Positions 16,479-40,086 of a stretch of DNA of 64,000 bases are shown here, piece by piece. The notes beneath the pieces were generated by a model. The model was not told the origin of the DNA. It did no database searches and saw only the letters and a list, made by a program, of their open reading frames with translations. Both the position numbers and the translations under genes were made by a program. How positions within the stretch are numbered: position 1 is the first letter of the stretch; the number at the start of each line of letters is the position of its first letter. The DNA comes from Myxococcota bacterium (lineage in GTDB: Bacteria > Myxococcota_A > UBA9160 > SMWR01): the NCBI GenBank assembly GCA_022447545.1, contig JAKVBI010000022.1, forward strand, positions 30,903 to 94,902, written 5' to 3'.

Positions 16479-16594
16479 GCGGGGCGCTCGAGCGGCATGG
16501 GACGTGTGATAGGTTAGAAGTCGGTGGGAGGGAAGTCGAATGGCCGCGACGTTGCGGCGCTGTGTGGGGCTGCTACGAATCCTCGCAACGAGCC

Positions 16595-17797: not shown

Positions 17798-18447
17798 ATT
17801 GGTTTCGCCGTCTCCACGAGCACCACCATAGGACGCGGCGGACTGAAGCATTGACGCGACATCTGAGCCGATTGATCCCACCGGCATCTCGTCTGTTGGA
17901 TGTGGGTTGCGGCGATGGTTTGTTGACGAGTCAACTGGCGGAGCAGTGCGTTGATGTTGCGGTGACCGGGGTGGATGTTCTGATTCGGAAAGATACTCAC
18001 GTTCCGGTGAGCTCTTTCGACGGCGTGTCTCTGCCGTTTTCAGATGGGTCTTTCGATGTGGTGATGATGGTGGATGTCGTCCATCACAGCGACGACCCTT
18101 TTCGGCTGCTCTCCGAGGCGGCGAGGGTCGCCAGCCGCTGCCTCGTTCTGAAGGACCACACTTTGCAGGGTGCGCTGGCGGCACCGACCCTGGCCTACAT
18201 GGATCGATTCTCCAACCTACGTCACGGCGTCGACGTGCCGTGCAACTACTGGACGCCGGAAACCTGGTCCCGCGCGTTCGGCGACCTGCAATTACACGTC
18301 GAAGAATGGGATTCACGGCTCGCTCTCTATCCATGGGGGTCGAGGTGGCTGTTGGAACGTTCGATGCACTTCGTTGCGCGCCTGGGTGTGCGTACAACGG
18401 CAGCGATGCAACTGCCGGACTCCGAGCCATTTGACGCCGCGCTCTGA
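17794..18447 (+). CDS. Class I SAM-dependent methyltransferase
   Basis: LLDVGCGDG and LPFSDGSFDVV..DVVHH; ATG 17794 overlaps the GT2 stop (ATGA). Confidence 0.88.
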   Translation: MNWFRRLHEHHHRTRRTEALTRHLSRLIPPASRLLDVGCGDGLLTSQLAEQCVDVAVTGVDVLIRKDTHVPVSSFDGVSLPFSDGSFDVVMMVDVVHHSDDPFRLLSEAARVASRCLVLKDHTLQGALAAPTLAYMDRFSNLRHGVDVPCNYWTPETWSRAFGDLQLHVEEWDSRLALYPWGSRWLLERSMHFVARLGVRTTAAMQLPDSEPFDAAL

Positions 18448-19765: not shown

Positions 19766-19766
19766 G

Positions 19767-21218: not shown

Positions 21219-22538
21219 GTGGTACGCTCGATCCAGCGTCGTGATGGTTCGGCGCGGCAAGCAACTGGGATGGTTGGTCCTTCACCTCGCTTTCGCCTTT
21301 ACACCACGCCCCGCAGCTATTGGACGCTCGTGCGGGAGAGCGCGCTATCGGGGTTCTCGGTAGGAGACGCCCTTCCTCGGCTGGAAGATGCCGTGGCACG
21401 GCGTGTGGGACTCCCCCACGCCGTGGCGACCGCCCGTGCGAGAACGGGTCTTTTTCTGGCCGTTCGCCAACTCGTCGAGCCTGGACGAGAAGTGGTCTTG
21501 TCGCCCTACACGATTCACGAAGTTGTGAACATGGTGATCTGTGCCGGGGGGGTGCCCGTGTTCGCAGACATCGACCGTGCGACCTGCAATCTAGATCCTG
21601 CGGCAGCCCAGGCGGCGATCACAGAGTCCACGGGAGCGGTGCTGGCAACGCATCTTCACGGTCTTGCCATGGACCTGGAACCCATGGCGAGATGGTGTGC
21701 TGCGCGCGGTATCGCCCTCATCGAGGACGCTGCTCAAGCGTTTGGAGCTCGAGTGGGTGGACGATCCGTAGGAAGTTTCGGCGATGCCGGGGTGTTCAGT
21801 TTCGGGATGTACAAGAATCTCACGAGCTTTCTCGGAGGGATGTTGGTGACGCCTCACCAGGAGGCCGCGGATGGCTGGCGCCGTGCGAGGTCCTCGTACC
21901 CTGCGACACCATTCGGAGAAATTCTGGGGGAGATGGGCCGTGCGGCGAGTACCGACCTGGCCACCTGGCCACCGCTCTTCCGTCCTCTGGTGTTCCCCCT
22001 GTTTCGCTTCGGGTACCTGCGCGGGATTGGCTGGCTCAACAGTCGTGTGACGGTCGAAAGCAATCCCTTGGCGCGAGAAGGAGAACCCCGGGAGTACATG
22101 GTGCAGATGCGTTCTGCCCAGGCGAAGGTGGCCCTCGATCGGATGGAGGGTGTCGATGAGGATGTAGCCGTTCGCATCGAACACGCGCGTCGGTATCAAG
22201 AGGGGCTCGGGGATCTGGATGCGCTCTTGTTGCCTCCGTGGCGGGAGGATGGATCTCACACGTACAGCTACTTCCCCGTTCAGTTCGAAGACCGCGAAGC
22301 GCTGATCCGTCACATGATGCGTTCGGGTTGTGATGTTGCTGCTCAGCACCTGAGAAATTGTGCCGACCTGCCGTGTTTCGAGGCCTACGCCCGGGATTGT
22401 CCCCAGGCCAGGCTGACGGCGGCTTCCACCATTCTGCTGCCCACCTATCCGCGGTACGGGGTCGAGGACGTTGAACGCAACGTTCGCGCGATCCGTTGCT
22501 TCTTCGGTAGGAATCCGGGTGGGGCGGTGTTTTCGTGA
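21219..22538 (+). CDS. DegT/DnrJ/EryC1/StrS PLP-dependent sugar aminotransferase
   Basis: IEDAAQAFG and SFGMYKNL (PLP lysine). Start 21219 or ATG 21270. Confidence 0.88.
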   Translation: MVRSIQRRDGSARQATGMVGPSPRFRLYTTPRSYWTLVRESALSGFSVGDALPRLEDAVARRVGLPHAVATARARTGLFLAVRQLVEPGREVVLSPYTIHEVVNMVICAGGVPVFADIDRATCNLDPAAAQAAITESTGAVLATHLHGLAMDLEPMARWCAARGIALIEDAAQAFGARVGGRSVGSFGDAGVFSFGMYKNLTSFLGGMLVTPHQEAADGWRRARSSYPATPFGEILGEMGRAASTDLATWPPLFRPLVFPLFRFGYLRGIGWLNSRVTVESNPLAREGEPREYMVQMRSAQAKVALDRMEGVDEDVAVRIEHARRYQEGLGDLDALLLPPWREDGSHTYSYFPVQFEDREALIRHMMRSGCDVAAQHLRNCADLPCFEAYARDCPQARLTAASTILLPTYPRYGVEDVERNVRAIRCFFGRNPGGAVFS

Positions 22539-24208: not shown

Positions 24209-25420
24209 GGGGAAGGTGGGGTCCATGCGGTGGGCTAGTGGCACCGCATACCAGAAAAGGCCACTCGCGAGGTGGAGCGCGAAGGCGCCCCCGCACACGC
24301 GGACGCGAATTCGCGTTCCCGGGGCCGACACGTCGGGGAGCGCGGCCTTGTCCATCAGGAAGCGCAATGAGCAGACGAACAACAGGAACAATGCGATCTG
24401 CGCCGACCAGAGGAAATTCCCATCGAGGTTCCTTGGGCCCGTTTCTGCCAGCAGGTACGCGTAGAGGGAACCCACCACGAAGGTCGACCAGGCGAGAATC
24501 AGCGAGCGGCTGCGTCGCGTTTCGCTCCACCAGGCTCCCAGAACCAGGGCCGGAAAAAGAATCGACATTGCGTACTTGATCGCGAGGTGGTCAGGGGACA
24601 GGGTGCCCATGACCGCTAGCGGCGCCCATTCGATGGAACTGGGGGTGTGGCTCGGATGGGCGGCCTGACCTGCTGAGTACGTGTACAGGTACTGCCACGC
24701 GAGCACGGCACAAGCCGGAAAAGCAATTCCCATCCCCAATGCCCGCAGGTCGGGAAGCGGTTTCGAGCGTCGAGTTAGGAAGACCGCGGCGCAAAGCGCG
24801 GGGAGCAGGGCGATGGTGTAACTGGGCTTCGCGAGGGTGGCGAGGATGACGATGGCCGCCGTCCCCATGATTCGTCCCAGGCCGACGTGTGCGCCCGGTT
24901 CGAGGGATCGGCAAGCCGCGATGAAGACCCATAGGGCGAGGGGTTTGAGGAGGGCCATGCTGGGGCTGTGGTGGGCGCTGATGGCGACGTACCCGTGATA
25001 GAGGTTGCGGTCGCCGGCGGTGAAGAGGTTCACGGGCATGACCAGCATGAGGCTCAAGGTCAGGCCTGCGATCACGAGGGGGGCTCGAAGACCGTGGGCC
25101 CTGGTCCGGCTTTGTTCGAGGAGCGAATAGAGGAGGGTGGCCAGGAGCAGTTGTGCGAAAAGGGAAACTCCGAAGGCGGCATTCAGGCTCGACAGCCCGG
25201 GAACCGCGAGGTGAAGGAGCGCGGTCAGACCGGCGAAGAGAAAATTGGGAAGAGGGATCCGGGTGGTTCCGTGGCGAGCCCAGTGTTCGGCCTCTCTCGC
25301 GTGAACCGTATAGTCCGATTCGCCGCCCAGGGCCCACAACATGCCGCTTGCTAGAAGCGCTGTGCTGATCAGCAGGAGGGTCAGGCCGCCGGGAAGCGGC
25401 TGCGAGGGGTGCGAACTCAC
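24188..25420 (-). CDS. Polytopic membrane protein, putative GT-C glycosyltransferase
   Basis: SDYTVH in the first loop, HHSPSMALLKP, LAKPSY and about 10 TMs; GTG 25420 overlaps the upstream stop (GTGA). Confidence 0.55.
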   Translation of the reverse strand: MSSHPSQPLPGGLTLLLISTALLASGMLWALGGESDYTVHAREAEHWARHGTTRIPLPNFLFAGLTALLHLAVPGLSSLNAAFGVSLFAQLLLATLLYSLLEQSRTRAHGLRAPLVIAGLTLSLMLVMPVNLFTAGDRNLYHGYVAISAHHSPSMALLKPLALWVFIAACRSLEPGAHVGLGRIMGTAAIVILATLAKPSYTIALLPALCAAVFLTRRSKPLPDLRALGMGIAFPACAVLAWQYLYTYSAGQAAHPSHTPSSIEWAPLAVMGTLSPDHLAIKYAMSILFPALVLGAWWSETRRSRSLILAWSTFVVGSLYAYLLAETGPRNLDGNFLWSAQIALFLLFVCSLRFLMDKAALPDVSAPGTRIRVRVCGGAFALHLASGLFWYAVPLAHRMDPTFPLLREWF

Positions 25421-27555
25421 GGCGCCGCCGTCAGGCGGGCCAAGCTCGCCTGTGCTTGTGCGTGGTGGGGGGCTTTCTCTATGACCTGGGTCCAGACACG
25501 TCGTGCTGCCTCGACGTCGCCCATCAAGTGGAAGCAGGCGCCCAGGTCGAACCCATGGTCCGGGGGGCGCGTCTCGGGTCGGGAGGACTCTCGATGACGG
25601 GCGATCCGGCTCTGGCAATTGGCGGCTCGTTTGCGGTTGAGCACCTCATGGGCAGCTCTTACGTCCGGTCGTTCCAGGGTCTTCGGCTCCACCCGGGAAA
25701 GAGCGTCGCCGGCGCCCACCGGGTCGCCCAGGACATCCCGCAGCAAGCCCAGGTGTAGCCAGTAGTGGGGGTCGTCGGGGCGTAGGTCGACCGCTTGTTC
25801 GTAGGCGTCCCGTGCGGCTCTAAGGGACCCCATGGTGATCAGCAGTTTTGCCATGCTATCGACGCCGCTGGCGTCTGGAACCTGTGGGAAGACTCCATCG
25901 AGCCAATTGGCCGGTGTGTCGAAGCGCGGTGGCGTGGCATGCGGGCGAATGGGGTCACTCCAGTCGATCGCCAACTCCTGGAGCTTGGCCTGGGTGTTCG
26001 GTGTCAGTCGCACGAAGGCCGCGTAGGCTTCATCGAAGTAGACAGCGATCCATTCCGGGTGTTGCTCGAGGGCTGCGATGACATCCATCCGGTAGAGGTG
26101 CCGTAACACCGCCGTGTTCAGACCCTGTTCGTCGAGGATTTGGAGATAGCCCTCGGGCGTCTCCAACTGGGTCAGTAGGTTGCCGAGCAGGTCCTGACCA
26201 TAGACCTCGAGTCGCCCGTCCAGGAAGACGCTCCGTTCGCCGCCGCGATAGAGCAGATACCCCCCATCGCTCAAGTCTCCCATGACGGGCCGGGGGAGCC
26301 CCTGCTCCTCGATAAAGGCCCAGGCGCGGATCGGAAAGCGCTCCTCCACCACCCCAAAGCCGAAGGCATGGGGCATGCGTTGGGAGCGCCAGAAGTGGTT
26401 GGTGGCCGCGGAGAGGCAAAGCGCCAGCGAGAGCGTCAAGGTGATGGCTCTGGCCATGCCTGGCAAGCCGTCGTAGAGCCACCGGGGTGCCGGAGAGAGT
26501 TCCCGCGGTGCGGTGAGCCATTCTCTCAGGTTCGCGGTGAGCACGACGCCGGCCACGATTCCGAACAGGGATGCGTTACGAGTCGATAGGAGAGAGAGGA
26601 GGAGAAAACCCGTCCACCAGGCCAGTCGGGTGAGGACGAACCTCTGGGGGCAGAGCAGGAAGGAGGCCGACGACACCCAGAGCACGCCCAGATAGGCCAT
26701 GAACTGGAAGTTCAGGCGACCGTCGAGCAGCGGGCTGCGAAGTTCGTCGATCATCAGGCTCATGTCGCTCCCCGCCTGAATCTGTTGCCAGAGGGTGACG
26801 GGGTAGAGGGCGCCATCCAGGAAGTAGGGGGTGGCCAGACCGCACAGAGAGAGCAGGACGGCCGTTGCCGTGAGTGCAGTGAGGCGCCGACCCCGTACGG
26901 GGTGAAGGTCTCCCGTTAACACATTCCACCTGTGTGCGAGGGTTCCCTGGGTGGCTTCGCAGATCACCGAGGTCCAGAGCAGAACGGGTCCGAGGATGGA
27001 AAGCGTATGGGTGTTGGCCCAGAGGATCTGGATGAGTGGGAGAGAGAGCAGCCAACCGGTTTGACCTCGTCGCTTGTACTGGTCGAGGCACAACAGCGTC
27101 GCCGAAAGCCACAAGAAGCTCATGACCTCGGGACGTAGACGCAACCGCGGATAGATGAGGATGAGGGCACAGAGGAGACCCAACGGACGAACCCAAGTTG
27201 CGCCTGCCCTCATGGTCTTCGCCAGTACGAGAAATGCGATCACGATCAGGGCGGTCTTTGCCAGGATCAGGCCGTTGAGTCCAGAGACGGCGGCGATCCC
27301 GTGGATCAGCAGGTAATAGAGCCAGCGTAGTTCGATCCAGGGTCGGTCGGGGAACGCGAAGCTGAAGGGATCGAGACGGGGTAACCCGTTTTCGAGGATC
27401 CAGCCGCCGGTGGCGTACTGCCACCAGAAGTCCACGGCAATGATTTTGTGCACCGACAGGGCGATGACAGCCGAGAAGAGGGCTGCCAGGGTGAGGCGGT
27501 CTAACCAGCGCCACCTCAGCGAGTCCGGTTTCTGACCCGGATCTGATTGGTACAT
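25417..27555 (-). CDS. GT-C-like membrane protein with C-terminal TPRs
   Basis: AVDFWWQYATG..DPFSF, LRLRPE, LWANTH and VFLDGRLEVY; TPR helices near the C-terminus. Confidence 0.65.
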   Translation of the reverse strand: MYQSDPGQKPDSLRWRWLDRLTLAALFSAVIALSVHKIIAVDFWWQYATGGWILENGLPRLDPFSFAFPDRPWIELRWLYYLLIHGIAAVSGLNGLILAKTALIVIAFLVLAKTMRAGATWVRPLGLLCALILIYPRLRLRPEVMSFLWLSATLLCLDQYKRRGQTGWLLSLPLIQILWANTHTLSILGPVLLWTSVICEATQGTLAHRWNVLTGDLHPVRGRRLTALTATAVLLSLCGLATPYFLDGALYPVTLWQQIQAGSDMSLMIDELRSPLLDGRLNFQFMAYLGVLWVSSASFLLCPQRFVLTRLAWWTGFLLLSLLSTRNASLFGIVAGVVLTANLREWLTAPRELSPAPRWLYDGLPGMARAITLTLSLALCLSAATNHFWRSQRMPHAFGFGVVEERFPIRAWAFIEEQGLPRPVMGDLSDGGYLLYRGGERSVFLDGRLEVYGQDLLGNLLTQLETPEGYLQILDEQGLNTAVLRHLYRMDVIAALEQHPEWIAVYFDEAYAAFVRLTPNTQAKLQELAIDWSDPIRPHATPPRFDTPANWLDGVFPQVPDASGVDSMAKLLITMGSLRAARDAYEQAVDLRPDDPHYWLHLGLLRDVLGDPVGAGDALSRVEPKTLERPDVRAAHEVLNRKRAANCQSRIARHRESSRPETRPPDHGFDLGACFHLMGDVEAARRVWTQVIEKAPHHAQAQASLARLTAAP

Positions 27556-27766: not shown

Positions 27767-28843
27767 TCAGCGGTCGCCCACCCAACTAAAGCGCAGGCCG
27801 GCGTGTGCCACGATCGAGTATCGATCGTAGGTCTGCCTGAGTTCGCCTCGGCCCGGTACGCCCACCCGTGCCGCATCGTTTCCCGTCGGGGCAGGCACGC
27901 GGGAGTTCTCGTTTCTGGGTGGAACTGCCGTGCTGATTCGGCTGAAGCCGATGGTGCGGTTGCTGAGGTAGATGGGGACGAGGGCGTCGGCGTACACGCC
28001 GATCAGAATCGGGCCTCGTCGTCCGAGGTCGACGCTCAACCCCAAACCGGGCGCGAGGGCGTGGAAGACGTCGGTCTGAGAGTAGTACTGCTTGAAGCGC
28101 TGCTGGTTGGCTCCGGTGATGGGGGTGGTGCCGGGTGTCGGGTACTGGGCCAGCAGCTCCCTGTAGCTCACCAGATGTTTGATTCGATCGCCGTAGTAGT
28201 TGATGGAGGGCTTGATGGCGACCTTGTACTCACTCAGGGGGACATCGAAGGAAAGGCCAGCTCCGACCCACCACAGTCCCTTGGGAGTTGCGTCGGCGAT
28301 ACCGAAGATTTCCGTACTGCCGATCGGGTCTACGCGGGTGCCCGTTGGGTTGAGTTCTTTGATCGCACGGACCGTTCCGAGCTCTTTGTCGATTCCCTGA
28401 GGAAAGCCGTATCCCGCGTGGATGAAGGCGCGAGGTTTTCCCGCGAGCTGCTCGATCTCCGGGGAGAGGAATTCGAGCGAAAGGGGAACCACCGCTCCCG
28501 CGAGGCTCGCCGAATTCGTGTTTCCCAAAGGAAGCACACAGGGGTCGGCGCCGACCAGGTTCAACCGGCCGTCGCAGAACGCCGCGTTGCTCACGCCGTA
28601 GATGTCGGTGCCGGTGTTGGGGAGCGTCAAGTCGGTCTTCTGGATGTCGCCTGCGAAGCCGCCGAAGAATCGGCTGACGAGGTCGGCGGAGTAGATACCT
28701 ACGCCAACGGTCACCGAGGGGGTCCAACCGGACCACATATCCTTTTTCTTCGGATTCGCGTCTTCGGCCGAGGCCGGAGAGAGGGCCAAGATCAGCAGGA
28801 CGCCGCCCACCAGCGGGCGAATCTTTTGTGTCGGGCGGTGCAT
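27767..28843 (-). CDS. Hypothetical exported protein, probable outer membrane beta-barrel
   Basis: GAGGA SD; signal peptide ending ASA; alternating aromatic/Gly strands; C-terminal AHAGLRFSW. Confidence 0.65.
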   Translation of the reverse strand: MHRPTQKIRPLVGGVLLILALSPASAEDANPKKKDMWSGWTPSVTVGVGIYSADLVSRFFGGFAGDIQKTDLTLPNTGTDIYGVSNAAFCDGRLNLVGADPCVLPLGNTNSASLAGAVVPLSLEFLSPEIEQLAGKPRAFIHAGYGFPQGIDKELGTVRAIKELNPTGTRVDPIGSTEIFGIADATPKGLWWVGAGLSFDVPLSEYKVAIKPSINYYGDRIKHLVSYRELLAQYPTPGTTPITGANQQRFKQYYSQTDVFHALAPGLGLSVDLGRRGPILIGVYADALVPIYLSNRTIGFSRISTAVPPRNENSRVPAPTGNDAARVGVPGRGELRQTYDRYSIVAHAGLRFSWVGDR

Positions 28844-29022
28844 CTATTCCTCGAATCGCGCACTTGAGGTGCACGAGGCAAGCGCCGATAGCGTTGCGCA
28901 GGCCGGATACTACCATGATTCATTCGCCGAAAGTGAAGCGGGATCGGGGTTGAAGGAGGTCGTCTGGGGCCGCCCCTTTCGGGCATGGGGAAAGGGTCGG
29001 ATGGGAGGGCGTGCCCACGAAC

Positions 29023-31230
29023 TCAGGGCGTCGGGTTCACCCGTTCGAGGTATGGGCGGCCTTTTCGGTACCCGTCGGCGCGTTCTAAAATGGCGGCTTC
29101 GGATTCGAGGTCGCTGTCCTGCCGTGCCAGTTCCGCCGCCTGTTCTGCCGCCTCGATGGCGAGATCGAACTCTCCGATAGCAGCCCACGCCGCGCCCAGC
29201 GTGTCCAAGGTGCTGAAGTCGGCGCCGTGTTTCTGGAGGCTGCGCTGGACGAGGGTCATTGCCTGTGGCGGGTTCCGGAGGCCGGAGTCGGGGATCGTTG
29301 CAAGCATCCATGCGAGGTCGTTGGTGATGAACTCGATTTCGGGGTTCATGCGGTGAGCGGTTCCGAGGTGTTGCAGGGCGTCGGCCTGATGTCCCATCTC
29401 CCAGAGGGCGGCACCCAGGTGCGCGTGGGTTTGAGCATCTTCGACCTCGGCCAGCACCCGTTGGAAGTGCCACGCGGCCTTGCTCAGTTGGCCCGATTTG
29501 AGCCTCTCGACCCCGAGATTCAAGTGCGCCGGGATGTACTCGGGGTTGCGGTCGAGTGCGAATTCCAAGAGAAAGATGGCTCTTTCGCTGTCGCCCTGTT
29601 CAGCCCAGATCTTGGCCAGGTTGCTGATGACCCTCTCGTCGGCATAAATGGCCAGAGAGGCATCGTGATGCTCGATGGCTTCTTCGGTCCGGCCCGCTCG
29701 GTAGAGGGCGAGCCCGAGACCTCCCTGGGCCTGGAAGTCATCAGGCATCAGGCGGACCGCTTCCTGTAGGTGCAACAGTGCTCCGTCCTGGTCCCCCATC
29801 TCGCTCAGGATCGCTCCCAGGTTGCGGTGGGAGGGCACGTCGTTGGGGTCCTTCTCCAGCGCGTCCCGAAAGTGGACCATGGCTTGGAAAGGACGGCTTT
29901 CACCGTTGTGGGACATTCCCAGGTTCGAGTGGGCCCGAGCGTATTGCGGGTTCTTCTCGACGGCGTCGGCCCAAAGGGTGATGTTGTTTTGCCACGTTGC
30001 ATTGCGGGTCAGGGTTCCTGCGATGAGAACGAGCACCACGAGAACCGCACCAACGACCGCAGAGCGCGGAAAGAGCTCCCGACCGGTCGCGAATGCGAAA
30101 GCGGGTGCCAGAACGACACCTGCCAGGGGAAGGTAGGTCCGGTGGTCGAACATCATCTCCAGCGGCAGGATCGAGGACTCGACGACCAAGTGGAGGAAGA
30201 ACCACAGGATCGAAAAGGAGAAGATTCGCCAACGTCGAGCCAGGGGGATTGCCCAGGCGAGAAGCAATAGGAGAACGAACATCGATCCGGCGGTCGTTGG
30301 GGGGGTGAAGAGGGACGTCGAAGGAATTACATGCTGTGCGATGGTCATTCGCGAAGGATCGGGAAGAAGGATGAGCAGCAGATATTGGACCACCACACGC
30401 GGTTGGGTCAGGAGGCGTTCACCCAGGGTGAAGTCACGGCGCGCGTAACCCAGGTCCGGCCCGTAGACGAGCACGTAATAGATCGCCCCCCCTACGAGAA
30501 CCAGTGGAACGGCCAGGCGCACAGCGCTGCGCTTCATCCATGCGCGGTCGAGATCGCGAAAGAAGAAGGCCTCGTAGAGCCACACGGCGACCGGAAGGGT
30601 GATGGCGTTCTGCTTGCAGCCCAGGGCCAACAGGCCCGAGACCACTGCCCCCGCGTAGGGGATGTGGCGCGCGGAACCGGGAGGCTTCTCGCGCCCCCGG
30701 ATGTACAGCAGGAGTGCAGAGAGGTAGAAGAACGTGGACAGGCTGTTCATGCGCTGAATCACGTAGGTGACGGACTGGACCTGGAGGGGGTGGGCGGCAA
30801 ACAAGAGCGCGGCGAACAGTGCCGTTGTACGCATGCTCGTGGGGTCGAAAGCAGGGCCCGACTGGTTCGGGAGCGAGCGCCAACGTTGGAGAGTCGCCGT
30901 GACGAAGGCGTACACGAGTAGGGAGTTTGCAAAATGGACCGCGACGTTCACCGCGTGGTAGCCGAAGACCTCGTATTGGCCGAACCAATAGTTGAGACCG
31001 AATGTGATGTTGGCGACCGGTCGCTGGTTGTAGGGGACGACGACGGTGTTGTAGAGAGTTTCGAGGTCGATCTGATACCAGCGAACGGCGGGTTGGTGCA
31101 CGATGGTGAAGTAGTCGTCGAAGGTGAATGGGGCCTCGAGAATGCTCTCGTAGAGGCCGAAACAGGCGGCACCGAGGATCACCATCACGAGGACGGTGAA
31201 TTGCCCCGCTTGGTCGGGGCGATTCGTCAA
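29023..31230 (-). CDS. TMTC-like (DD-motif GT-C + TPR) putative protein O-glycosyltransferase, paralogue A
   Basis: FTFDD, RPVANITF, HPLQVQSVTY..QR, CKQ, DHRTYLP and RNATW, followed by multiple TPRs. Confidence 0.82.
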   Translation of the reverse strand: MTNRPDQAGQFTVLVMVILGAACFGLYESILEAPFTFDDYFTIVHQPAVRWYQIDLETLYNTVVVPYNQRPVANITFGLNYWFGQYEVFGYHAVNVAVHFANSLLVYAFVTATLQRWRSLPNQSGPAFDPTSMRTTALFAALLFAAHPLQVQSVTYVIQRMNSLSTFFYLSALLLYIRGREKPPGSARHIPYAGAVVSGLLALGCKQNAITLPVAVWLYEAFFFRDLDRAWMKRSAVRLAVPLVLVGGAIYYVLVYGPDLGYARRDFTLGERLLTQPRVVVQYLLLILLPDPSRMTIAQHVIPSTSLFTPPTTAGSMFVLLLLLAWAIPLARRWRIFSFSILWFFLHLVVESSILPLEMMFDHRTYLPLAGVVLAPAFAFATGRELFPRSAVVGAVLVVLVLIAGTLTRNATWQNNITLWADAVEKNPQYARAHSNLGMSHNGESRPFQAMVHFRDALEKDPNDVPSHRNLGAILSEMGDQDGALLHLQEAVRLMPDDFQAQGGLGLALYRAGRTEEAIEHHDASLAIYADERVISNLAKIWAEQGDSERAIFLLEFALDRNPEYIPAHLNLGVERLKSGQLSKAAWHFQRVLAEVEDAQTHAHLGAALWEMGHQADALQHLGTAHRMNPEIEFITNDLAWMLATIPDSGLRNPPQAMTLVQRSLQKHGADFSTLDTLGAAWAAIGEFDLAIEAAEQAAELARQDSDLESEAAILERADGYRKGRPYLERVNPTP
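30390..30793 (-). repeat. 404-bp inverted repeat, copy 1 (inside TMTC paralogue A)
   Basis: Its reverse complement aligns without gaps to 31757-32160, with 11 mismatches by manual alignment. Confidence 0.95.
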
Positions 31231-31273
31231 CGTTGGAGGTCCTGCGCTGAGGAGTCGATCCTGCGATCTCGGA

Positions 31274-31279
31274 TATACT
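31274..31279 (+). promoter_or_regulatory. -10 element TATACT in the divergent gap between the TMTC paralogues
   Basis: TATACT 49 nt before ATG 31329, in a 98-bp intergenic region. Confidence 0.5.
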
Positions 31280-31328
31280 GTCCTGCGAAGGGAAGGCCGT
31301 CGGTCTTCGACTTGTTCATGGCCACATC

Positions 31329-33257
31329 ATGACGCGAATTGTTCGGGGGCGCTCTATCGAAAGGCGTCGCGCTGGTGCGTGGCTCGGTCTGCTGGCGTTG
31401 GTCACCCTCGGTTCGATCGCCTACTCGGGTGTTCTGCACGCGCCCTTCGCGTTCGACGATCAACGCAACCTTTTGGAAAATCCGGCGATTCGGTGGCAGG
31501 AGGTGGATCTCGACTCTTTTCGTGCGGCCGTTTTCGAGAGTCCTTCGAATCGGCCCGTGGCGAACCTGACCTTCGCACTCAATTACCGGGTGGGTGGGTA
31601 TGAGGTCTCGGGCTACCGCCTGGTCAATGTCGTCGTGCATCTGCTCAATGCACTCCTGGTGCAGTTTTTTGCCCGCACGACGTTTCGGAGGGTGGGCGGC
31701 CTGGGTCCGAACATCGCAGAGCGTGCTGCCTGGTTCGCGGCACTCCTGTTTCTCGTCCACCCCCTCCAGGTTCAGTCCGTCACCTACGTGATTCAGCGCA
31801 TGAACAGCCTGTCCACGTTCTTCTATCTCTCGGCACTCCTTTTGTACATCCGGGGGCGCGAGAAGCCTCCCGGTTCCGCGCGACACATCCCCTACGCGGG
31901 GGCAGTGGTCTCGGGCCTGTTGGCCCTGGGCTGCAAGCAAAACGCCATCACCCTTCCGGTCGCCGTGTGGCTCTACGAGGCCTTCTTCTTTCGCGATCTC
32001 GACCGCGCATGGATGAAGCGCAGCGCTGTGCGCCTGGCCGTTCCACTGGTTCTCGTGGGGGGGGCGATCTATTCCGTGCTCGTCTACGGGCCGGACCTGG
32101 GTTACGCGCGCCGTGACTTCACTCTGGGTGAACGCCTCCTGACCCAGCCGCGTGTGGTGGCTGCCTATGCAGGACTGATGGCCTTTCCACACCCCGCACG
32201 CTTGAGCCTCATTCACGAGGTCGAAGTTTCGACCTCACTCGTGGAACCGCTCACGACTCTGCTGGCAATCCTGGGCCTGTGTGCGGGCGTGGGGTTCGCG
32301 GTTGGGTGGGCACGATCCCGACCGCTTCTGTCCTTTGGGGTCTTTTGGTTCATGCTCCAACTCGTCGTGGAGTCATCGGTGCTCCCTCTCGAAATGATGT
32401 ACGAGCATCGCACCTACCTGCCGTTGGTGGGGGTTTGCCTGGCCTTCGCCCATGTCTGGTACAGCTGGATTGCGAAAACTCCAGCTCGCGTACGTGTCGC
32501 AGATGGTCTGGCGATTGTGGTGACGCTGGCGTTGACGCTTGGAACACTCGAACGCAACCGGGTTTGGCTCACCGCGGAGTCGCTTTGGGCGGACGCGCTG
32601 TCGAAGAACCCGGGAAGCGTACGGGCCCAATCGAATCTGGGCACGGCCCTGGCTATGGCGGGTCGGTTTGACGAGTCCGAGGGCCATCAACTCGCGGCAC
32701 TGGCGATTGCCCCCGATTTCTTTGAAGCGCATATGAATCTCGCGCGGCTTTATCTGCACCAGGGCCGGGCGGGGGAGGCGCAGCGCCACCTGGAACGAGC
32801 GCTGGAGACAAGAGGGGCGGACCCTGAGGTGCTGGCGGATCTTGGGGCCGCCTTCGCGCAGCTGGGTCGGTCTGAGGAGGCTGCTGTGGCGTTCGAGACG
32901 GCTCTCGATCTGGCCCCGGACCATCGCCGCAGCCGGTACAACTATGGGCTGATGTTGTTGGGCACGAACCAGTTCGAGGAGGCGTCTCGCCAGTTGGTGG
33001 AGGCGGCGAGAATCGAACCCGGGCGGCCAGAGACGCATATGTTTCTCGCAAGGGCATTCGCGGGCCTGGGCCGCAGGGACGAAGCGATTCGACAGTATCA
33101 GGAGGTTCTTCGGCTCGTGCCGCAACATGGAGGCGCCCGGGCGGATCTGGAGCTTTTGGTCAGGGAGATGCCGTCGCGGTCTTCGGGGGACGCTCCCCCG
33201 GTGGAGCGACCACCTCAGTCGACGCGATCGGACACCGGAGCGATTCCCCGTCGATAA
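31329..33257 (+). CDS. TMTC-like (DD-motif GT-C + TPR) putative protein O-glycosyltransferase, paralogue B
   Basis: FAFDD, RPVANLTF, HPLQVQSVTY..QR, EHRTYLP and RNRVW, followed by TPRs. Confidence 0.82.
   Translation: MTRIVRGRSIERRRAGAWLGLLALVTLGSIAYSGVLHAPFAFDDQRNLLENPAIRWQEVDLDSFRAAVFESPSNRPVANLTFALNYRVGGYEVSGYRLVNVVVHLLNALLVQFFARTTFRRVGGLGPNIAERAAWFAALLFLVHPLQVQSVTYVIQRMNSLSTFFYLSALLLYIRGREKPPGSARHIPYAGAVVSGLLALGCKQNAITLPVAVWLYEAFFFRDLDRAWMKRSAVRLAVPLVLVGGAIYSVLVYGPDLGYARRDFTLGERLLTQPRVVAAYAGLMAFPHPARLSLIHEVEVSTSLVEPLTTLLAILGLCAGVGFAVGWARSRPLLSFGVFWFMLQLVVESSVLPLEMMYEHRTYLPLVGVCLAFAHVWYSWIAKTPARVRVADGLAIVVTLALTLGTLERNRVWLTAESLWADALSKNPGSVRAQSNLGTALAMAGRFDESEGHQLAALAIAPDFFEAHMNLARLYLHQGRAGEAQRHLERALETRGADPEVLADLGAAFAQLGRSEEAAVAFETALDLAPDHRRSRYNYGLMLLGTNQFEEASRQLVEAARIEPGRPETHMFLARAFAGLGRRDEAIRQYQEVLRLVPQHGGARADLELLVREMPSRSSGDAPPVERPPQSTRSDTGAIPRR
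31757..32160 (+). repeat. 404-bp inverted repeat, copy 2 (inside TMTC paralogue B)
   Basis: Partner of 30390-30793; about 97% identical. Confidence 0.95.
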
Positions 33258-34072
33258 CTCGAGAGGTGGCGCTCGATCTCGTTGCCCAGTTCGGGATCGC
33301 CGCTCTCTCGGGCGAGCTTCAGGGCCGCCAGACCCGCGGCGCGAGCGGCCCCGAATTTTCCGTTGGCAGCCTCGGCCACGGCGAGCGTGTCGAGAATGGC
33401 CGCATCGCTTCGGTCGCTGGCCTCGGCTGCAATCCGAGCCAGGTCGAGGGCTTCGGGAGGAGATCGCAGGCTGGGGTCTGGATGAGTGGCCAGGAGCCAG
33501 GCGAGCAGATTCAGTCGTACCGGGTCCGACGGCGAAGCTTCGAGGGCGGCACGGGCCTGTTCGATCTGCGCTCGCTCCCTCTCGGACCGGTACTCCAAAA
33601 GGTTCGTCAGGAATTCTCGGGCGGGCGCGAAACCCGGCCTCACCGAGAGCGTGAATTCGAGGCGGTCGATCGCCTCGTGAATGCGACCTTTCTCGACCAG
33701 GAGTTGAGCCAATGCGTAGTTCGTGTGGGGCGAGAAGGGTTCGATGGTCAGGGACTCGACCAGCGAGGCATGGGCTTCCTCGTAGCGCCCCGCTTTCATC
33801 AAGGCATGACCCAAGGTGCGGTGGGAAGTCGGCCTGTTGCCGTGATCGAGGTCTGCCGCCATACGGATCTGCTGGATGTGGCGCTCGGTCTCTCCATTGG
33901 CTGCGAGTTCTTTCAGCCACCAGTTGTAGCTGAGTGCGAGTCGAGGAGCCTCGCCTTCGAGCACGAACGATTCGTAGGCACCGCTCAGGAACGCCAGGCC
34001 AAAGATTCCGGCGCTGAGGCCGAGGGCGAGGCGTTTGAGTTCGCGGGAGACGCGGGGGCTAGCGGGTTGCAA
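33215..34072 (-). CDS. Membrane-anchored TPR protein
   Basis: AAGGAG SD 6 nt before TTG 34072; one TM, then TPRs and an NLLAWLLAT..LDTLA module. The upstream part of ORF 33215..34825 is shadow sequence. Confidence 0.72.
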   Translation of the reverse strand: MQPASPRVSRELKRLALGLSAGIFGLAFLSGAYESFVLEGEAPRLALSYNWWLKELAANGETERHIQQIRMAADLDHGNRPTSHRTLGHALMKAGRYEEAHASLVESLTIEPFSPHTNYALAQLLVEKGRIHEAIDRLEFTLSVRPGFAPAREFLTNLLEYRSERERAQIEQARAALEASPSDPVRLNLLAWLLATHPDPSLRSPPEALDLARIAAEASDRSDAAILDTLAVAEAANGKFGAARAAGLAALKLARESGDPELGNEIERHLSSYRRGIAPVSDRVD

Positions 34073-34125: not shown

Positions 34126-35199
34126 TCAGGTGGCTGCGGGTACGCTTTGTTCGACGATGGCGCGATTGCCGCCACGGGAAAGGCGCCAGATGAAGGCGTC
34201 GACGATGAAGTGGTGAACGTTGATCGCGGCCACTACGAGAAGCATGCTCTCCACGAATCCGAATCCGACCAGCACGTAGGCGTGGGGTAGCAGGGCGAAG
34301 AGGCCATAGGCCAGCACGAGGGATGTGGCGTAGAAGCGGGCCACATGATGCACGGCACTGCGCGGATCTCCAGCTTTGCGCTGGTCTTTGAGGTGGAAGA
34401 TGGTCACGATGGCGAGGTATTGGACCCCGTGGAAGACCGTGGCCCAGACGAACGCATCGCGATAGGAGAGCGTGGCCCACCAGACGCCGTTGGTGATGAC
34501 GACGAGCAGGCTGATGAATGGCATGGGCATGCCTGATTGGCGCCAGACCCAGAAGAAGAGTGCGATGGGAGAGGCGAAGATCAGCACGGTTAGGATCTTC
34601 TGGGTCGTGAGGAGTAGTTCGATGACCTGTGGTTCCATCATTACGGACCGCGGCAGCAGCCAGCCGATGCCGACATCGCCGGCTTGCACGATGGCCAGCA
34701 GGAAGGGGAGGAGGCACACCCAGCGCAGGAGTTTCTTGTCGAGGGGGCGCAGACGGCAGCCCGAGTGCATGCTGTACATGACAGCGAGTCCGTACGCCTG
34801 GGCCGCGTAGTGGAAGGGCGACCACGTCAGATAGAGGGATTGCAGGTGGGGCCCCAGCGTGCCGGCTTCGAAAATGCAGAGCGTCAGCATCAGGAATGCG
34901 ACAACAGGAAATGCGAGGGTGAGGAACGGCATGTCTTCGGTGGCGCCGGGCTTGGTGTAGAGACGCACGGTCGAAGAAGCGAAATGAGTGCTGTTGGTGA
35001 GCAAGATCAGCATCGCCATCAGCGAAATGGTGTCGTCACCAAAGGAGATGCTCAGATGCAGGCGACCGGCGTGGTGGATCCAGAGCATCACGAGAAGGCT
35101 CAATCCACCGCCGATGATCAGATAGTCGAAGATCGGGTGGACGAAGGACTGACCGAGCAGTCGAGTCGAAAGGCTCGACGAAGTGCTGTCTCGGTTCAT
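34126..35199 (-). CDS. Hypothetical polytopic membrane protein with several His motifs
   Basis: THFASS, FHYAAQ, FHGVQY and VHHFIVDAFIW in hydrophobic helices; ATG 35199 is the inferred start. Confidence 0.7.
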   Translation of the reverse strand: MNRDSTSSSLSTRLLGQSFVHPIFDYLIIGGGLSLLVMLWIHHAGRLHLSISFGDDTISLMAMLILLTNSTHFASSTVRLYTKPGATEDMPFLTLAFPVVAFLMLTLCIFEAGTLGPHLQSLYLTWSPFHYAAQAYGLAVMYSMHSGCRLRPLDKKLLRWVCLLPFLLAIVQAGDVGIGWLLPRSVMMEPQVIELLLTTQKILTVLIFASPIALFFWVWRQSGMPMPFISLLVVITNGVWWATLSYRDAFVWATVFHGVQYLAIVTIFHLKDQRKAGDPRSAVHHVARFYATSLVLAYGLFALLPHAYVLVGFGFVESMLLVVAAINVHHFIVDAFIWRLSRGGNRAIVEQSVPAAT

Positions 35200-35464
35200 C
35201 GCACGTGGTTCCCCTGCCAGCGGCTGTGCGTCGGTGGCGCTGGAGTTCGGATCGCGGTCGGCCCGCGATCGTCCGAACCGCAGACTCGGGTCGGGAGCAA
35301 AGGATACCCTGCTCTCAGCAAGCCATCCATCGAAGGTGTTTGGTGCGGACCCGTGAGGATCGGCGACACAAGGGTCTGCGGGGTGGCTGGCTGGCAACGC
35401 GTTCGTGGGTGCGGTCGCATGGGGCGATGGCTCGGACGGAGGCAATGATTTCGATGCGGCGGCG

Positions 35465-36937
35465 ATGAACTCCGGCGGAACTCGTCCGAGGCGGTGGCTC
35501 GAAGAGAGGCGGGGCAGCGCGGCCCTACGGGTGTTGCTCTGTCTGCTGTTTGGCGGCTTCGGGCTGGGCTGCACGCCGGCGCGTTCGGGGCCGCCCGACA
35601 TCGTTCTGGTCGTGATCGATACCCTTCGCTCGGATCGGGTGTCGGCCTATGGGTATGCGCGTGAGACGACTCCACGACTCGATGCCCTGGCGCAGCGGGG
35701 GATTCGATTCGATCGCGCGAGTTCGACCTCGAGCTGGACGGTGCCCGCCCACGCATCCCTGTTCACGGGCCTCGCGCCGCTCCAGCATGGGGCTCATCAG
35801 GAACACGCTCGCCTTGAACCGGGAATTCCCACCTTGGCGGAGCGCTTGCGCGACGCCGGGTATGCGACCTTTGGGGCCAGTGCCAATCCGCTGGTGGGTT
35901 CTCGGACCGGTTTGTCCCGTGGCTTCGACGCATTCGCCGAGACCTGGCGACCTGCCGCACGTGAGGGTCGCACCCACCCGAATCAAGACGCTGTGTTGAG
36001 CTTTCTGGGCGACGTCCCGGTGAGCCAGCCGGTGTTCCTGTTTCTGAACTACATGGAAGTTCACGGCCCCTACGATCCGCCGCTGCCCTTTCGGGCCGAG
36101 TTTCTCTCCGCCGCCGAGGCCGACGGTACCTTCAGGGATGATTTCGAGGCGTCGCGTTATTACCTCGACAGGAACTCGATCTCAGACGCTGATTTTCGGA
36201 GGTTGTCAGACCTCTACGACGGGGAGGTCGCTTACGCGGACGCGTTGCTTGGCGAACTCCTCGACGCACTGGATCGGGCGGATCGCTTGGACAACGCCGT
36301 GTTGGTGGTCACCTCCGACCACGGAGAGAACCTGGGGGACCACGGCCACTTTCGCCACGTCTTCAACCTCTATGGAAGCACCGTGTCGGTTCCTCTTGTG
36401 TTCGTTTTGCCCGATGACAGCCGCGCAGGTGAAGTGGTGGAGGCACCGGTCAGCCTTGTGGACGTGTTCGCGTCGATTCTGGCCGCGGCGGGTTTGCCTC
36501 CTGGGGGCGTGGGTCGCGATCTTCTCGGGTCTCCCGTGGATCCCGGGCGAGCCGTTTATGCGGAGTACTTTCGTCCCGCTCAGGCGTTGACGTTGTTTAC
36601 ACCGGGTGAATTCGAGGAACACTCGGATCGCCTTCGCCCTTTCCTTCGGGTGCTGAGATCGGTCGAGCATGGTGGGCTGAGACTGATCTGGTCTTCAGAT
36701 GGGAAGCGTGAACTGTACGACGTGAAGGCGGACCCCGGCGAGCAACGCAATCTGTGGGAGGAGCCCGCCTATGCCCAGCGAGCGATGGATTTGGTGGAGT
36801 TGCTGGAAGGGCAGGGTGGGCGGCCGGGCGAGGCGTCGGAGCAGGGTCTTCTGGATGGGGTCTCGGCGAGTCCCTTTGGGGTGCTCGACGCGGAGGAAGA
36901 GGCCCGCCTTCGCGAGTTGGGCTATCTGCGCCCGTGA
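35465..36937 (+). CDS. Alkaline-phosphatase-superfamily ('sulfatase-like') lipoprotein, Thr-type
   Basis: Lipobox-like GLGC; IDTLRSD, WTVPAHASLFTG and TSDHGE; C-terminal LRELGYL. Confidence 0.85.
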   Translation: MNSGGTRPRRWLEERRGSAALRVLLCLLFGGFGLGCTPARSGPPDIVLVVIDTLRSDRVSAYGYARETTPRLDALAQRGIRFDRASSTSSWTVPAHASLFTGLAPLQHGAHQEHARLEPGIPTLAERLRDAGYATFGASANPLVGSRTGLSRGFDAFAETWRPAAREGRTHPNQDAVLSFLGDVPVSQPVFLFLNYMEVHGPYDPPLPFRAEFLSAAEADGTFRDDFEASRYYLDRNSISDADFRRLSDLYDGEVAYADALLGELLDALDRADRLDNAVLVVTSDHGENLGDHGHFRHVFNLYGSTVSVPLVFVLPDDSRAGEVVEAPVSLVDVFASILAAAGLPPGGVGRDLLGSPVDPGRAVYAEYFRPAQALTLFTPGEFEEHSDRLRPFLRVLRSVEHGGLRLIWSSDGKRELYDVKADPGEQRNLWEEPAYAQRAMDLVELLEGQGGRPGEASEQGLLDGVSASPFGVLDAEEEARLRELGYLRP

Positions 36938-36943: not shown

Positions 36944-38425
36944 TTATTCCAGGTAGCCGAGTTCGCGCAGGGCCTGCACGTCGCGGGTATCTGGCTCGCT
37001 CGAGGGGTCCATGGGGTCAGCGCTCAGCCACGTGTCGAGCTGGGCTCGGAGGCGGGGCAGCGCCGGGTGGTCGACTCGATAGAGGTTGTTCTGTTCGTTC
37101 GGGTCTGAGGAGAGTTGGTAGAGCTCGTAGGCATCAGCTTCAGGGAGGCCGGGTGTATAGATGAGCTTGTGGTCTTCGAGGGTCACGGACCGGAGCTTGC
37201 CTGCGACGTCGAAGCGAACGCGCCGCGGGGTTTCGCGGGGATAGAAACTGCGTCCGCTCTCGGCATAGGTGGCTCGGGGTTGGCGGGTGTCGCGCACGGA
37301 GTGGGGCAGTAGCGATCGCCCGTCCAGTGCCTGGGTTTGCGCGGCCGGTAGACCGAGGTCGAGCAACTCCACGAGTGTCGGCAGGACGTCGACCAGAGAG
37401 ACCCTTTCGTCCACTCTGGCTGGACCTCCAGCCGGGTCGTTGCGTGGGAGGATGATGGCGAGTGGGACACGCAACACGCTTTCGTACAGGCTGTCTCCGT
37501 GATCGTAGTGAAGCCCGTGGGCTCCGAGTTCTTCGCCATGGTCTGCGGCAAAGACGATCAACCAGTCGGGGCCGCGCTCGGCTTTGAACCGGGTCACGAG
37601 TTCGGCGATGGCATTGTCGGTGTAGCGGATTTCCGCGGCGTAGAGGCGGCGAATGTGCTCGTTCACACGCTCGGGAAGTGTGTTGCGGTAGACCGACTTC
37701 ACTTTCCCGAGTTCGGGCGGGTAGGCGCTCTCGCCCGTGCCGCCGGGCGTGGTTCCAAAACGGAGGGCGTAGGGACCCTCGTAGCCCGTATCGAAAGCGA
37801 GAGCCTGCTCGGGTGGTGGGAAGTAGGGAACGTGGGGGTCGATGTAGTGAACCCAGATGAAGAGGGGAGTCCCGTCGGGGGTTCGTTCGAGTTGCTCGAT
37901 GGCCGTTCGGGTGGTGGCTTTTGCATCGCGGGTGTCCAGGCCGTGATCGTAGACGTCGAAGCCACGAGCGAGACCGCGTTCAGGTCCGAGGATGTGGTTG
38001 GAGACCACCGCGACGGTTCGGTAGCCCCGGGCTCGGGCCAATTCTGGGAGCGAGGGCAGGTCGTCTCGAAGCCGGCCAAACAGGGTGCGGACGCCATGGC
38101 TCGGGGGATAGACGCCTGTAAACAGACTGGCGATGGACTGGGTGGTGCGTGGGCTCGGAGTGACTGCACTTTCGAAGATCACGCCTTCTGCAACCAGGGC
38201 ATCGAGAAATGGCGTGGTGGGGCGATCGTACCCATTGCGCGAGAGGTGGTCGGCGCGCAGGGTGTCCACCGTCAAGAGCAGAATGTTTCGGCGGCCCTCG
38301 GGGATCTCGGGTCCCGTGCAGGCCCAGAGGAATAGGCTTCCCCAGAGCAGCCAGCTTCCCCGCATGAGCAGGTCCCTCGACCGCACCAGGGCCCAGTGCG
38401 AGGCATTGCGCGCGGTAGGGCTCAT
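36944..38425 (-). CDS. Alkaline-phosphatase-superfamily ('sulfatase-like') lipoprotein, Thr-type
   Basis: Lipobox LWAC; VDTLRAD, RTTQSIASLFTG and AADHGE; C-terminal LRELGYL; ATGA overlap with the upstream GT (alternative start 38365). Confidence 0.85.
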   Translation of the reverse strand: MSPTARNASHWALVRSRDLLMRGSWLLWGSLFLWACTGPEIPEGRRNILLLTVDTLRADHLSRNGYDRPTTPFLDALVAEGVIFESAVTPSPRTTQSIASLFTGVYPPSHGVRTLFGRLRDDLPSLPELARARGYRTVAVVSNHILGPERGLARGFDVYDHGLDTRDAKATTRTAIEQLERTPDGTPLFIWVHYIDPHVPYFPPPEQALAFDTGYEGPYALRFGTTPGGTGESAYPPELGKVKSVYRNTLPERVNEHIRRLYAAEIRYTDNAIAELVTRFKAERGPDWLIVFAADHGEELGAHGLHYDHGDSLYESVLRVPLAIILPRNDPAGGPARVDERVSLVDVLPTLVELLDLGLPAAQTQALDGRSLLPHSVRDTRQPRATYAESGRSFYPRETPRRVRFDVAGKLRSVTLEDHKLIYTPGLPEADAYELYQLSSDPNEQNNLYRVDHPALPRLRAQLDTWLSADPMDPSSEPDTRDVQALRELGYLE

Positions 38426-40086
38426 GACTCGCTGGCCCGGCGTGTGAAGATCTCGAGGTCCCCGATGCGGATCGCAAAGCGATAGTGATTCTCGATCCAG
38501 GCTTCGAGTTCGGGAAATTCCATGAGCGCGTGATCGCTGTCCACCGGAGTGCGGGCGACCGTCTCGAACACGGCCCGGTCGGAGTGGATGACGACGATGG
38601 CAGCGGGTGGGTCCATTTCGAGGTCCGCGAGCAGTTCGCCTCTTGCCGCGTCTCTCGACCAGATGGCGCGCTGGGGAAGGTTGTAGATGTAGCGTGAGGC
38701 GGGCCGTCTCTTCGCGAGGTCGTAGAGCACCGGCTGGAAGCCCCAGATGTAGATCGATTCGTTCACCGGGGTGTGTGCTTCGATCCATTGCGCGGCGCGG
38801 TGGTTGCCCGGTGTGTCCACATCCCCTTCTGCGTAGAGGTGCTCGCGAATTCCCTGGCGTCCTTGAGGGGCTCCCAGGGCCCAGCCGCGTTGAGCACTCC
38901 GCATCCAGAATTCCTCCAGGGTGCCGGTGCCTGGCGCGGCCGTCGCGAAGACGGCCACCAGGGCTACCGCCGCCACGGCCACACTCCACCACGCTTCGCG
39001 GACCAGCAGCCAAAGCTTCCAGTAGCCCCAGCCTGCCAACAACCCCGTCAGCACGAAGGTCGCTGCGAAGTGGTAGTGGAAGAATTTTCCCTGGAGGGCG
39101 ACGCCGAGCTGGGCCATCAGGATCAACCCGAGCACATGGAGTGCCGCGGATCGCTCGCCGGGGTGCAACGGTCGGAGCATCACGAAGGGGACGATGCCCA
39201 TCAGGTTCAGTGGCGTCATGCGCATGAGCCACTCCCAGGCTGCCCGGCCGAGGAGCATGGGCAGGCGGTCGGGGTGAAAGTCGAGAGCGACGTAATGGGG
39301 GGTGAACACGAAAAGCGCCTGGTGTAGATCGGAGAGTGCCCCCTTGAAGGCGAAGTAGGCGAGGGTGATCAGGAGAGGGAACGCGGCGCCCACCGAAAAG
39401 GCGAGCAGGGGCGGACGGAGTGCCCCCCATGCGCGGGTTCGGGCGGGCTCCGGTGCAGAATTGGATGCCGAAGTCCAACGTTGCCAGGCCACCCAGGCGA
39501 TGCTGACGGCGATACCTCCGCCGAGCGGGGGTTTGAGCAGAGCCGCAGCCCCGTACAGGGCCCCTGCCATTCGCCAGTTCCTGGTGGCTCCCCTTCCCGG
39601 CGGCTGGGTGGCAAAGACCAGCGCCCAGGCCAACAGGGCAGCTCCAAACCCCTCGGGTTGGGCGGTGTTCCAGTACTCGAGGGGCACATAGGCGAAAACC
39701 GCCATGGCAGCTCCGAGAGCGCCGGGCTCCCAGCGTCCCACGGCGCGTCTCGAGAACAGCCCAAAGGCGGGGAAGATCGAGAGCAGGAGCAGGGCCTCGA
39801 GGATCCGAACGGCTCGCTGTTCGGGGCCGAACAGCACTTCACCGACCGCGAAGACGAGGTAGATGCCTGGCGGCTTGAAGTCCCAGGCCGCTCGGTAGGG
39901 GGCCTCGCCGCGCTGGACCGCATCCGCGACCACGGCGTAGATCCCCTGGTCCCGCCCGTAGCCGAAGTCGAGCAACTGGAGCAGGAAGAGTGCCGCTAGG
40001 ACCCCCGTGAAACCCAGCAGCCACCGGTCGCGGCGCATCGGCGGGGCGAATCGGTCATCGGCCCCCGGTTCCTTGGCATGGGTCAC
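38422..40086 (-). CDS. ArnT/PMT-like GT-C glycosyltransferase
   Basis: GRDQGIY..PYRAAWDFKPPG, AQPEGF, LLKP and HYHF; GTG 40086 overlaps the upstream stop (GTGA). Confidence 0.75.
   Translation of the reverse strand: MTHAKEPGADDRFAPPMRRDRWLLGFTGVLAALFLLQLLDFGYGRDQGIYAVVADAVQRGEAPYRAAWDFKPPGIYLVFAVGEVLFGPEQRAVRILEALLLLSIFPAFGLFSRRAVGRWEPGALGAAMAVFAYVPLEYWNTAQPEGFGAALLAWALVFATQPPGRGATRNWRMAGALYGAAALLKPPLGGGIAVSIAWVAWQRWTSASNSAPEPARTRAWGALRPPLLAFSVGAAFPLLITLAYFAFKGALSDLHQALFVFTPHYVALDFHPDRLPMLLGRAAWEWLMRMTPLNLMGIVPFVMLRPLHPGERSAALHVLGLILMAQLGVALQGKFFHYHFAATFVLTGLLAGWGYWKLWLLVREAWWSVAVAAVALVAVFATAAPGTGTLEEFWMRSAQRGWALGAPQGRQGIREHLYAEGDVDTPGNHRAAQWIEAHTPVNESIYIWGFQPVLYDLAKRRPASRYIYNLPQRAIWSRDAARGELLADLEMDPPAAIVVIHSDRAVFETVARTPVDSDHALMEFPELEAWIENHYRFAIRIGDLEIFTRRASES

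Follow-up and report, generated by a model that had tools for sequence, protein, structure and literature searches.

A near-identical 404-nt inverted repeat inside two head-to-head TPR glycosyltransferase genes of a Myxococcota bacterium: a probable lineage-specific gene-conversion tract

Two paralogous genes, here called A and B, stand head to head in a 64,000-nt stretch of DNA from a Myxococcota bacterium (GenBank assembly GCA_022447545.1, contig JAKVBI010000022.1, positions 30,903 to 94,902 of the forward strand), which is referred to below as the window, and each of them contains one arm of a near-identical inverted repeat. Gene A (29023-31230, minus strand) has a TTG start and encodes 735 amino acids (aa), with a predicted GT-C membrane domain from residue 1 to about 415 followed by a long array of tetratricopeptide repeats (TPRs), while gene B (31329-33257, plus strand) has an ATG start and encodes a 642-aa paralogue with a shorter TPR array. 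The two are divergently transcribed across a 98-bp gap, and their proteins are 47% identical overall, the repeated segment included. Promoters of both genes presumably lie within this gap (31231-31328); a promoter scan of 28700-33600 gave no sigma-70-like match, and their positions are inferred only. A third, distant paralogue at 44899-46845 (minus strand; 26-27% identity by tblastn, with TPR matches) has no part in the repeat.

Only one long inverted repeat was detected in the region by the repeat search; its arms, 30390-30817 and 31733-32160, span 428 nt and are 96% complementary. A blastn self-comparison of the 64-kb window found nothing further. Compared base by base, the arms differ at 17 of the 428 positions, and because six of these mismatches sit in the 24 nt at the gene-5′ edge (30794-30817), which mark a boundary, the core comprises 404 nt with exactly 11 mismatches. 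This core occupies 30390-30793 on the minus strand inside gene A (codons 147-280, with weak similarity continuing to 30817) and 31757-32160 on the plus strand inside gene B (codons 144-277, with weak similarity from 31733). Both arms share one codon phase, they differ by 2.7%, and their longest identical run is 116 nt. Ten of the core mismatches are synonymous and one is a replacement (Tyr252 in A, Ser249 in B), exactly the tally given by the original prediction, which had been made from the letters of the window and a list of its ORFs (open reading frames). Its further remark that the flanking sequence is clearly diverged also holds, as both flank peptides that it quoted, RPVANITFGLNY and RPVANLTFALNY, are present, and ungapped identity falls off immediately outside the core (17-40% beyond its 5′ edge, 43-53% beyond its 3′ edge). 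Chance is excluded as a source of the match, since the probability of at least 393 identities in 404 positions is 2e-25 even at a generous background identity of 0.80.

Between the core arms lies a spacer of 963 bp (30794-31756), the segment that any crossover between them would invert, which holds codons 1-146 of A, codons 1-143 of B, and the intergenic gap. Two ORFs that run antisense to the genes, 30331-30921 (plus strand) and 31227-32216 (minus strand), share a near-identical peptide but were rejected as genes, being mirror images of the repeat in GC-rich DNA.

The products of A and B are predicted to join a membrane-embedded GT-C glycosyltransferase domain to a TPR array, in an architecture like that of the TMTC proteins. 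TPR family matches cover the C-terminal arrays of both proteins; NCBIfam matches were confined to this part, with none for the polytopic N-terminal domain of about 415 aa, and Pfam returned no match to the membrane domain even at E ≤ 10. AlphaFold2 models of the gene A product reached pLDDT (predicted local distance difference test) values of 93.9 and 92.7, the latter for the membrane domain (aa 1-415), which was searched alone because a fold search with the full-length model gave TPR proteins only. The top Foldseek matches of this domain in the PDB were the GT-C enzymes ArnT (5ezm/5f15), AglB, STT3, Pmt4, EmbB, and PglB, a consistent list with a probability of 1.00 for most entries, modest E-values (2e-3 to 1e-1), and query-normalised TM-scores of up to 0.53. 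Across 36 homologues, K206 and R364 are invariant and D38, D39, E362, H363, and Y366 near-invariant, and the motif pattern consists of a DD pair in the first loop (D38/D39), RP (R70/P71), a lysine in KQNAIT (K206), and E362-H-R364-x-Y366. The motifs used for comparison, an acidic pair in the first loop, a lipid-phosphate-binding lysine, and an ERxxY-type element, were defined in eukaryotic TMTC O-mannosyltransferases (PMC7801869), and equivalence to them was judged by position and pattern, without structural superposition. As in TMTC1-4 and the PMT-clan GT-C O-mannosyltransferases (PMC7801869), an N-terminal polytopic GT-C domain precedes the TPR repeats and the same motif set recurs, with KQNAIT comparable to KE(T/Q)xxT and E-H-R-x-Y (362-366) to ERxxY. 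A and B differ in being bacterial and in giving no match to Pfam DUF1736 or PMT_2, so they are described here as TMTC-like in architecture and not as members of a curated family; the likeness concerns the proteins and not the repeat. Genes of this GT-C plus TPR family are often clustered in metagenome contigs as two to four adjacent paralogues, either in tandem (loci L007, L008, L014, and L021) or divergent and head to head (L013/L024, L032, L034, L047, and L079).

Within this protein plan, the repeated tract encodes aa 147-280 of A, which comprise the central helices of the membrane domain together with the invariant K206, with the catalytic DD loop encoded in the spacer and the last helices and TPR array encoded beyond the tract. 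Its 5′ edge falls at the near-invariant H147/P148 of the motif HPLQ.QSVTYV.QR, and its 3′ edge lies directly past the near-invariant residues E271-R272..T275..R278-V279 (motif ERLLTQ.RVV).

The contrast between the tract and its surroundings is greatest at silent sites. By Nei-Gojobori counting, the core of A and B differs by 0.10 synonymous substitutions per synonymous site (dS) and 0.003 nonsynonymous substitutions per nonsynonymous site (dN), against a dS of about 1.7-1.8 and a dN of about 0.54-0.60 in both membrane-domain flanks, while in the TPR region dS is saturated and dN is not informative. Where the two proteins carry the same amino acid, the codon is identical at 90% of positions in the tract and at only 36-44% in the flanks. 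Changes since the event that made the arms alike are almost all synonymous, from which both genes are taken to be functional and under purifying selection. The core mismatches are evenly spread (max-chi-square permutation p = 0.44 within the 404 nt), so one event, with subsequent decay under purifying selection, suffices. Nested or recurrent conversion inside the tract was considered and rejected, as the p value of 0.0006 that the same test yields for the 428-nt arm is due solely to the 24-nt boundary.

A syntenic relative, known from four assemblies with 99.4-99.7% mutual identity, allows the history of the segment to be set against that of its flanks. The assemblies are a 'Myxococcales bacterium' metagenome-assembled genome at NCBI (GCA_013215605.1, L003), SPKZ01004019.1 (L005), and two ENA contigs (L085 and L086), the first of which is 32 kb long and has the gene order of the window. 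The relative encodes full-length orthologues of both genes, A2 (752 aa, 53% identical to A over 726 aa) and B2 (614 aa, 54% identical to B over 610 aa). No locus closer than this 55%-identity relative occurred among the 80 loci of the metagenome scan, and a scan of genome contigs gave only two distant matches; the protein of the window itself was absent from the contig index. When sites were sorted by four-taxon pattern among A, B, A2, and B2, those grouping orthologues, those grouping the paralogues of each genome (concerted), and those with the crossed grouping numbered 37, 17, and 16 in the N-terminal flank and 58, 29, and 19 in the C-terminal flank, against 1, 65, and 3 in the tract. The flanks thus pair A with A2 and B with B2, whereas the tract pairs A with B of the window genome. 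Over the tract segment (4891-5312 and 6263-6684 in L003; 6757-7456 and 8407-9106 in L085), A2 and B2 are only 72-74% identical at the nucleotide level, with a longest identical run of 33 nt in the HPLQTQSVTYV motif, which places the homogenisation in the lineage of the window after the two lineages split.

Constraint on the segment, whether at the codon level or through an antisense gene or RNA, was ruled out as the cause of the identity, because orthologues are near saturation at silent sites in that same segment, with proportions of synonymous differences (pS) of 0.62 between A and A2 and 0.56 between B and B2.

The relative's own paralogues are likewise most alike in this segment, with a pS of 0.47 between A2 and B2 compared with 0.58-0.62 in the flanks and an identical-codon fraction of 0.65 compared with 0.45 (Fisher p = 0.005). 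These values, which are near saturation and come from the most conserved part of the protein, give only a hint that an older exchange may have touched the same segment in the relative's lineage. Between two of the relative's assemblies, alignment of L086 with L085 breaks downstream of B2 (L086 2215-2226 and 3581-3582), past which the called genes encode 306 and 162 aa in L086 and 278 and 357 aa in L085; this suggests strain-level indels in the genes for a TPR protein and a membrane protein.

The repeat is best explained, with a probability of roughly 0.85, as a lineage-specific intrachromosomal (ectopic) gene-conversion tract between A and B. The original prediction had named a past gene-conversion tract as one of two possibilities, and this possibility is upheld by the contrast in dS and by the conflict between flanks that group orthologues and a tract that groups paralogues. 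A and B are old, divergently transcribed paralogues in an apparent cell-envelope glycan locus. Once their lineage had separated from that of GCA_013215605.1, a segment of about 404 bp in one gene would have been overwritten, fairly recently, by its counterpart from the other. The replacement probably proceeded by homologous recombination, through heteroduplex formation or double-strand-break repair with the neighbouring paralogue as template, and presumably depended on RecA as in model organisms. Conserved motifs would be the spots with enough nucleotide identity for strand invasion and for the exchange to start and resolve, and both the position of the tract and its sharp ends would follow from the persistence of identity between the paralogues at such strongly conserved motifs. 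After the conversion, the two copies would have gained almost only synonymous changes. A reciprocal crossover in the same arms may also occur and would invert the spacer, as a by-product of the geometry and not a demonstrated function.

The closest known case is conversion between tufA and tufB of Salmonella enterica, inverted paralogues that are homogenised by RecA-dependent conversion, with occasional inversions between them (PMC5485169; PMC6735719). Conversion of the tuf genes occurs at about one per 10^5-10^6 generations, conversion and inversion going together (PMC5485169; PMC6735719); the tuf work of Abdulkarim and Hughes (1996) and Hughes (2000) is drawn on here as cited in those two papers. 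In both systems, a chromosome carries two paralogous coding sequences in opposite orientation, a few hundred bp form one continuous conversion tract, the copies differ by about 1-3%, mostly silently, and a crossover in the repeats would cause inversion. The tuf genes match one another over the full 1185 nt, are separated by 762 kb, and specify one and the same protein, whereas A and B are alike over 404 nt of genes of about 2 kb, with arms 963 bp apart, the remainder saturated, and different TPR arrays. RecA dependence and recurrence are features of the tuf system and could at most be presumed for A and B.

Several points weigh against intrachromosomal conversion, or at least limit what can be claimed for it. 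Site patterns favour neither gene as the donor, as 41 sites in the tract match A2 only and 44 match B2 only (16 and 11 at the amino-acid level) and the relative is too distant to decide between them, and non-reciprocity of the transfer is therefore assumed. The organism is represented by one assembly, which leaves no close strains against which to date the event, and the role of RecA may be suggested only by analogy with model organisms. A segment imported from another strain's paralogue would, moreover, be indistinguishable from one transferred within the genome.

Slightly likelier than the other alternatives, although still improbable, is that one arm is a paralogue fragment acquired by horizontal transfer from a related strain or species, and that the 2.7% divergence predates the event. 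Arms that are not identical (dS 0.10) fit a diverged donor, and the outcome of such an import looks like an old internal conversion. The explanation is less parsimonious, because it needs both uptake of foreign DNA and recombination into a non-allelic paralogue, and neither 5.8 billion protein clusters nor the scans of metagenomes and genomes yielded a third sequence close to one of the arms.

The second possibility of the original prediction, an invertible switch, fared less well than conversion. It would make the arms the working parts of an invertible element in which homologous recombination flips the 963-bp spacer at a useful frequency. In this way, the promoter and N-terminal catalytic-loop module of each gene would be joined to the last helices and the TPR array of the other, and envelope glycosylation would be diversified within a population. 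The geometry permits this, as the arms are inverted, share one codon phase, contain identical runs of up to 116 nt, and bracket both 5′ ends and the intergenic gap. A crossover simulated in the 116-nt run inverts the spacer and leaves two open, in-frame chimaeras, one of about 645 aa joining the 5′ part of A to the 3′ part of B and one of about 732 aa joining the 5′ part of B to the 3′ part of A, which bears out the geometry that had been predicted. Conversion and inversion are, as in the tuf genes, linked outcomes for inverted repeats. Such inversion was expected to proceed without a nearby site-specific recombinase, and indeed no Pfam family of integrases, resolvases, invertases, or transposases was matched in 47 ORFs of the window, very short ORFs not being scanned (cut-offs of E ≤ 1e-5, and of E ≤ 1e-3 for the seven ORFs nearest the repeat). 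This absence counts against a dedicated switch, and further evidence speaks against frequent exchange. The arms are 2.7% diverged with evenly spread mismatches and thus bear no sign of later homogenisation, and near-identity of the arms is not conserved at the locus, since it is lacking both in the relative and in the divergent pair of L013 (67% identity, longest identical run 17 nt). Not one of 84 related loci, 16 of which have at least two paralogues, contains a tract of at least 90% identity, the best being 87% over 174 bp at a contig end (L021). A single orientation, with A-type N-termini joined to A-type C-termini, is seen in the window and in each of the relative's four assemblies, and no chimaeric protein occurs among 643 homologues in the database matches. 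Because A and B each keep their own start codon and upstream region, a flip would also have no on/off effect. Apart from its feasibility, an invertible switch has nothing in its favour and is very improbable, leaving conversion as the part of the original pair that stands.

A weaker form of the same idea, in which the converted segment is also a recombination substrate and a minority of cells flips the spacer, swapping promoter and catalytic-loop modules against TPR modules that would recognise acceptors, has a similarly slim chance of being correct. By analogy with known systems, rare homologous inversions at the arms of A and B would nonetheless be feasible. If minority flipping were true, it would give a Myxococcota-like bacterium a recombinase-free way to shuffle modules and thereby the specificity of its envelope glycosylation.

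Programmed inversions that yield in-frame chimaeras are known from the hsdS shufflons of type I restriction systems, and at the sap locus of Campylobacter fetus a promoter segment between opposed S-layer gene homologues is inverted in a RecA-dependent manner. In sap, as could happen at A and B, homologous recombination between conserved segments of opposed paralogues re-pairs a promoter with a gene body, but the sap locus has one promoter, several otherwise silent homologues with conserved 5′ regions, and a clear antigenic phenotype, whereas the repeat studied here is internal and each gene is complete with its own 5′ end and upstream region. The vsa locus of Mycoplasma pulmonis provides a precedent for inversions that move a promoter and 5′ coding end onto the body of another gene (PMC4534519). 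With both vsa and the shufflons, A and B share inverted repeats within coding sequences and a promoter-proximal 5′ part that would be moved in frame. In those systems the repeats are short or perfectly identical, a site-specific recombinase of their own is usually encoded nearby, silent cassettes take part, and both orientations coexist in populations. A and B, in contrast, are two complete genes with arms of 97% identity, a single known orientation, and no recombinase found in the ORFs scanned. The likeness to hsdS, vsa, and sap is confined to geometry, and does not extend to an adjacent recombinase, conserved near-identical arms, or single-promoter silent cassettes.

Least credible of all is an assembly artefact, in which the contig is chimaeric at this point, with a strain variant of the A segment threaded into B or with the spacer oriented arbitrarily across a repeat. 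In its favour, the contig has been seen only once and apparently stems from metagenomic assembly, short-k assemblers can be misled by a repeat of 97% identity with an identical run of 116 nt, and a divergence of about 3% is typical of strain variants. Against it, neither gene is truncated or frameshifted and each is colinear with its orthologue, synonymous differences between the arms outnumber replacements 10:1 as expected if both copies are under selection, identity is lost only a few bases outside the core so that the junctions must presumably have been in the reads, and the assembled orientation agrees with the linkage of N-terminal and C-terminal flanks in the relative.

Read as conversion between A and B, the tract is a new example of a known process, ordinary gene conversion, and a clear natural case of partial conversion between old bacterial paralogues, with a bounded tract and both genes under selection. 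Its distinctive feature is that only an internal block of 404 nt has been homogenised in otherwise saturated head-to-head genes whose arms are less than 1 kb apart. The pattern indicates that conserved motifs can be landing pads for recombination between genes that are otherwise saturated, and that such exchange is a source of conflict among domain-level phylogenies of such families. Phylogenetic trees and orthology calls of these TPR glycosyltransferases should mask the tract segment, and short-read assemblers could mis-orient the spacer.

The first three ORFs of the window look unrelated, encoding a DctM-like transporter fragment, a CoA-transferase, and a DAG-kinase-like protein, but from about 2.9 kb onward the window appears, from its annotated families, to be one large locus for cell-envelope glycoconjugates. 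It includes PMT_2-type GT-C enzymes (2874-4781 and 18170-19765), an exosortase-like protein (11635-12234), an MBOAT protein (13995-15389), GT2 enzymes (16562-17797 and 58504-59883), a GT2 enzyme fused to a methyltransferase (51986-53998), a DegT protein (21219-22538), and an LPG-synthase-type membrane protein (55013-56032), as well as two 2OG-Fe(II) oxygenases, epimerases, and methyltransferases. Five proteins belong to the sulfatase/alkaline-phosphatase families (19740-21191, 35405-36937, 36944-38335, 48635-50062, and 50059-52653).

Three minus-strand neighbours of the pair lack a family assignment and have counterparts in the relative: a polytopic membrane protein of 491 aa (34126-35601), a 358-aa protein with a signal-peptide-like N-terminus (27767-28843), and a 712-aa membrane protein with C-terminal TPRs (25417-27555). 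These proteins may work with the A/B pair. In an 844-aa ORF at 36944-39478 (minus strand), the sulfatase domain occupies only the last 463 aa or so, and the Arg/Pro-rich N-terminal 380 aa look like a spurious upstream extension in GC-rich DNA.

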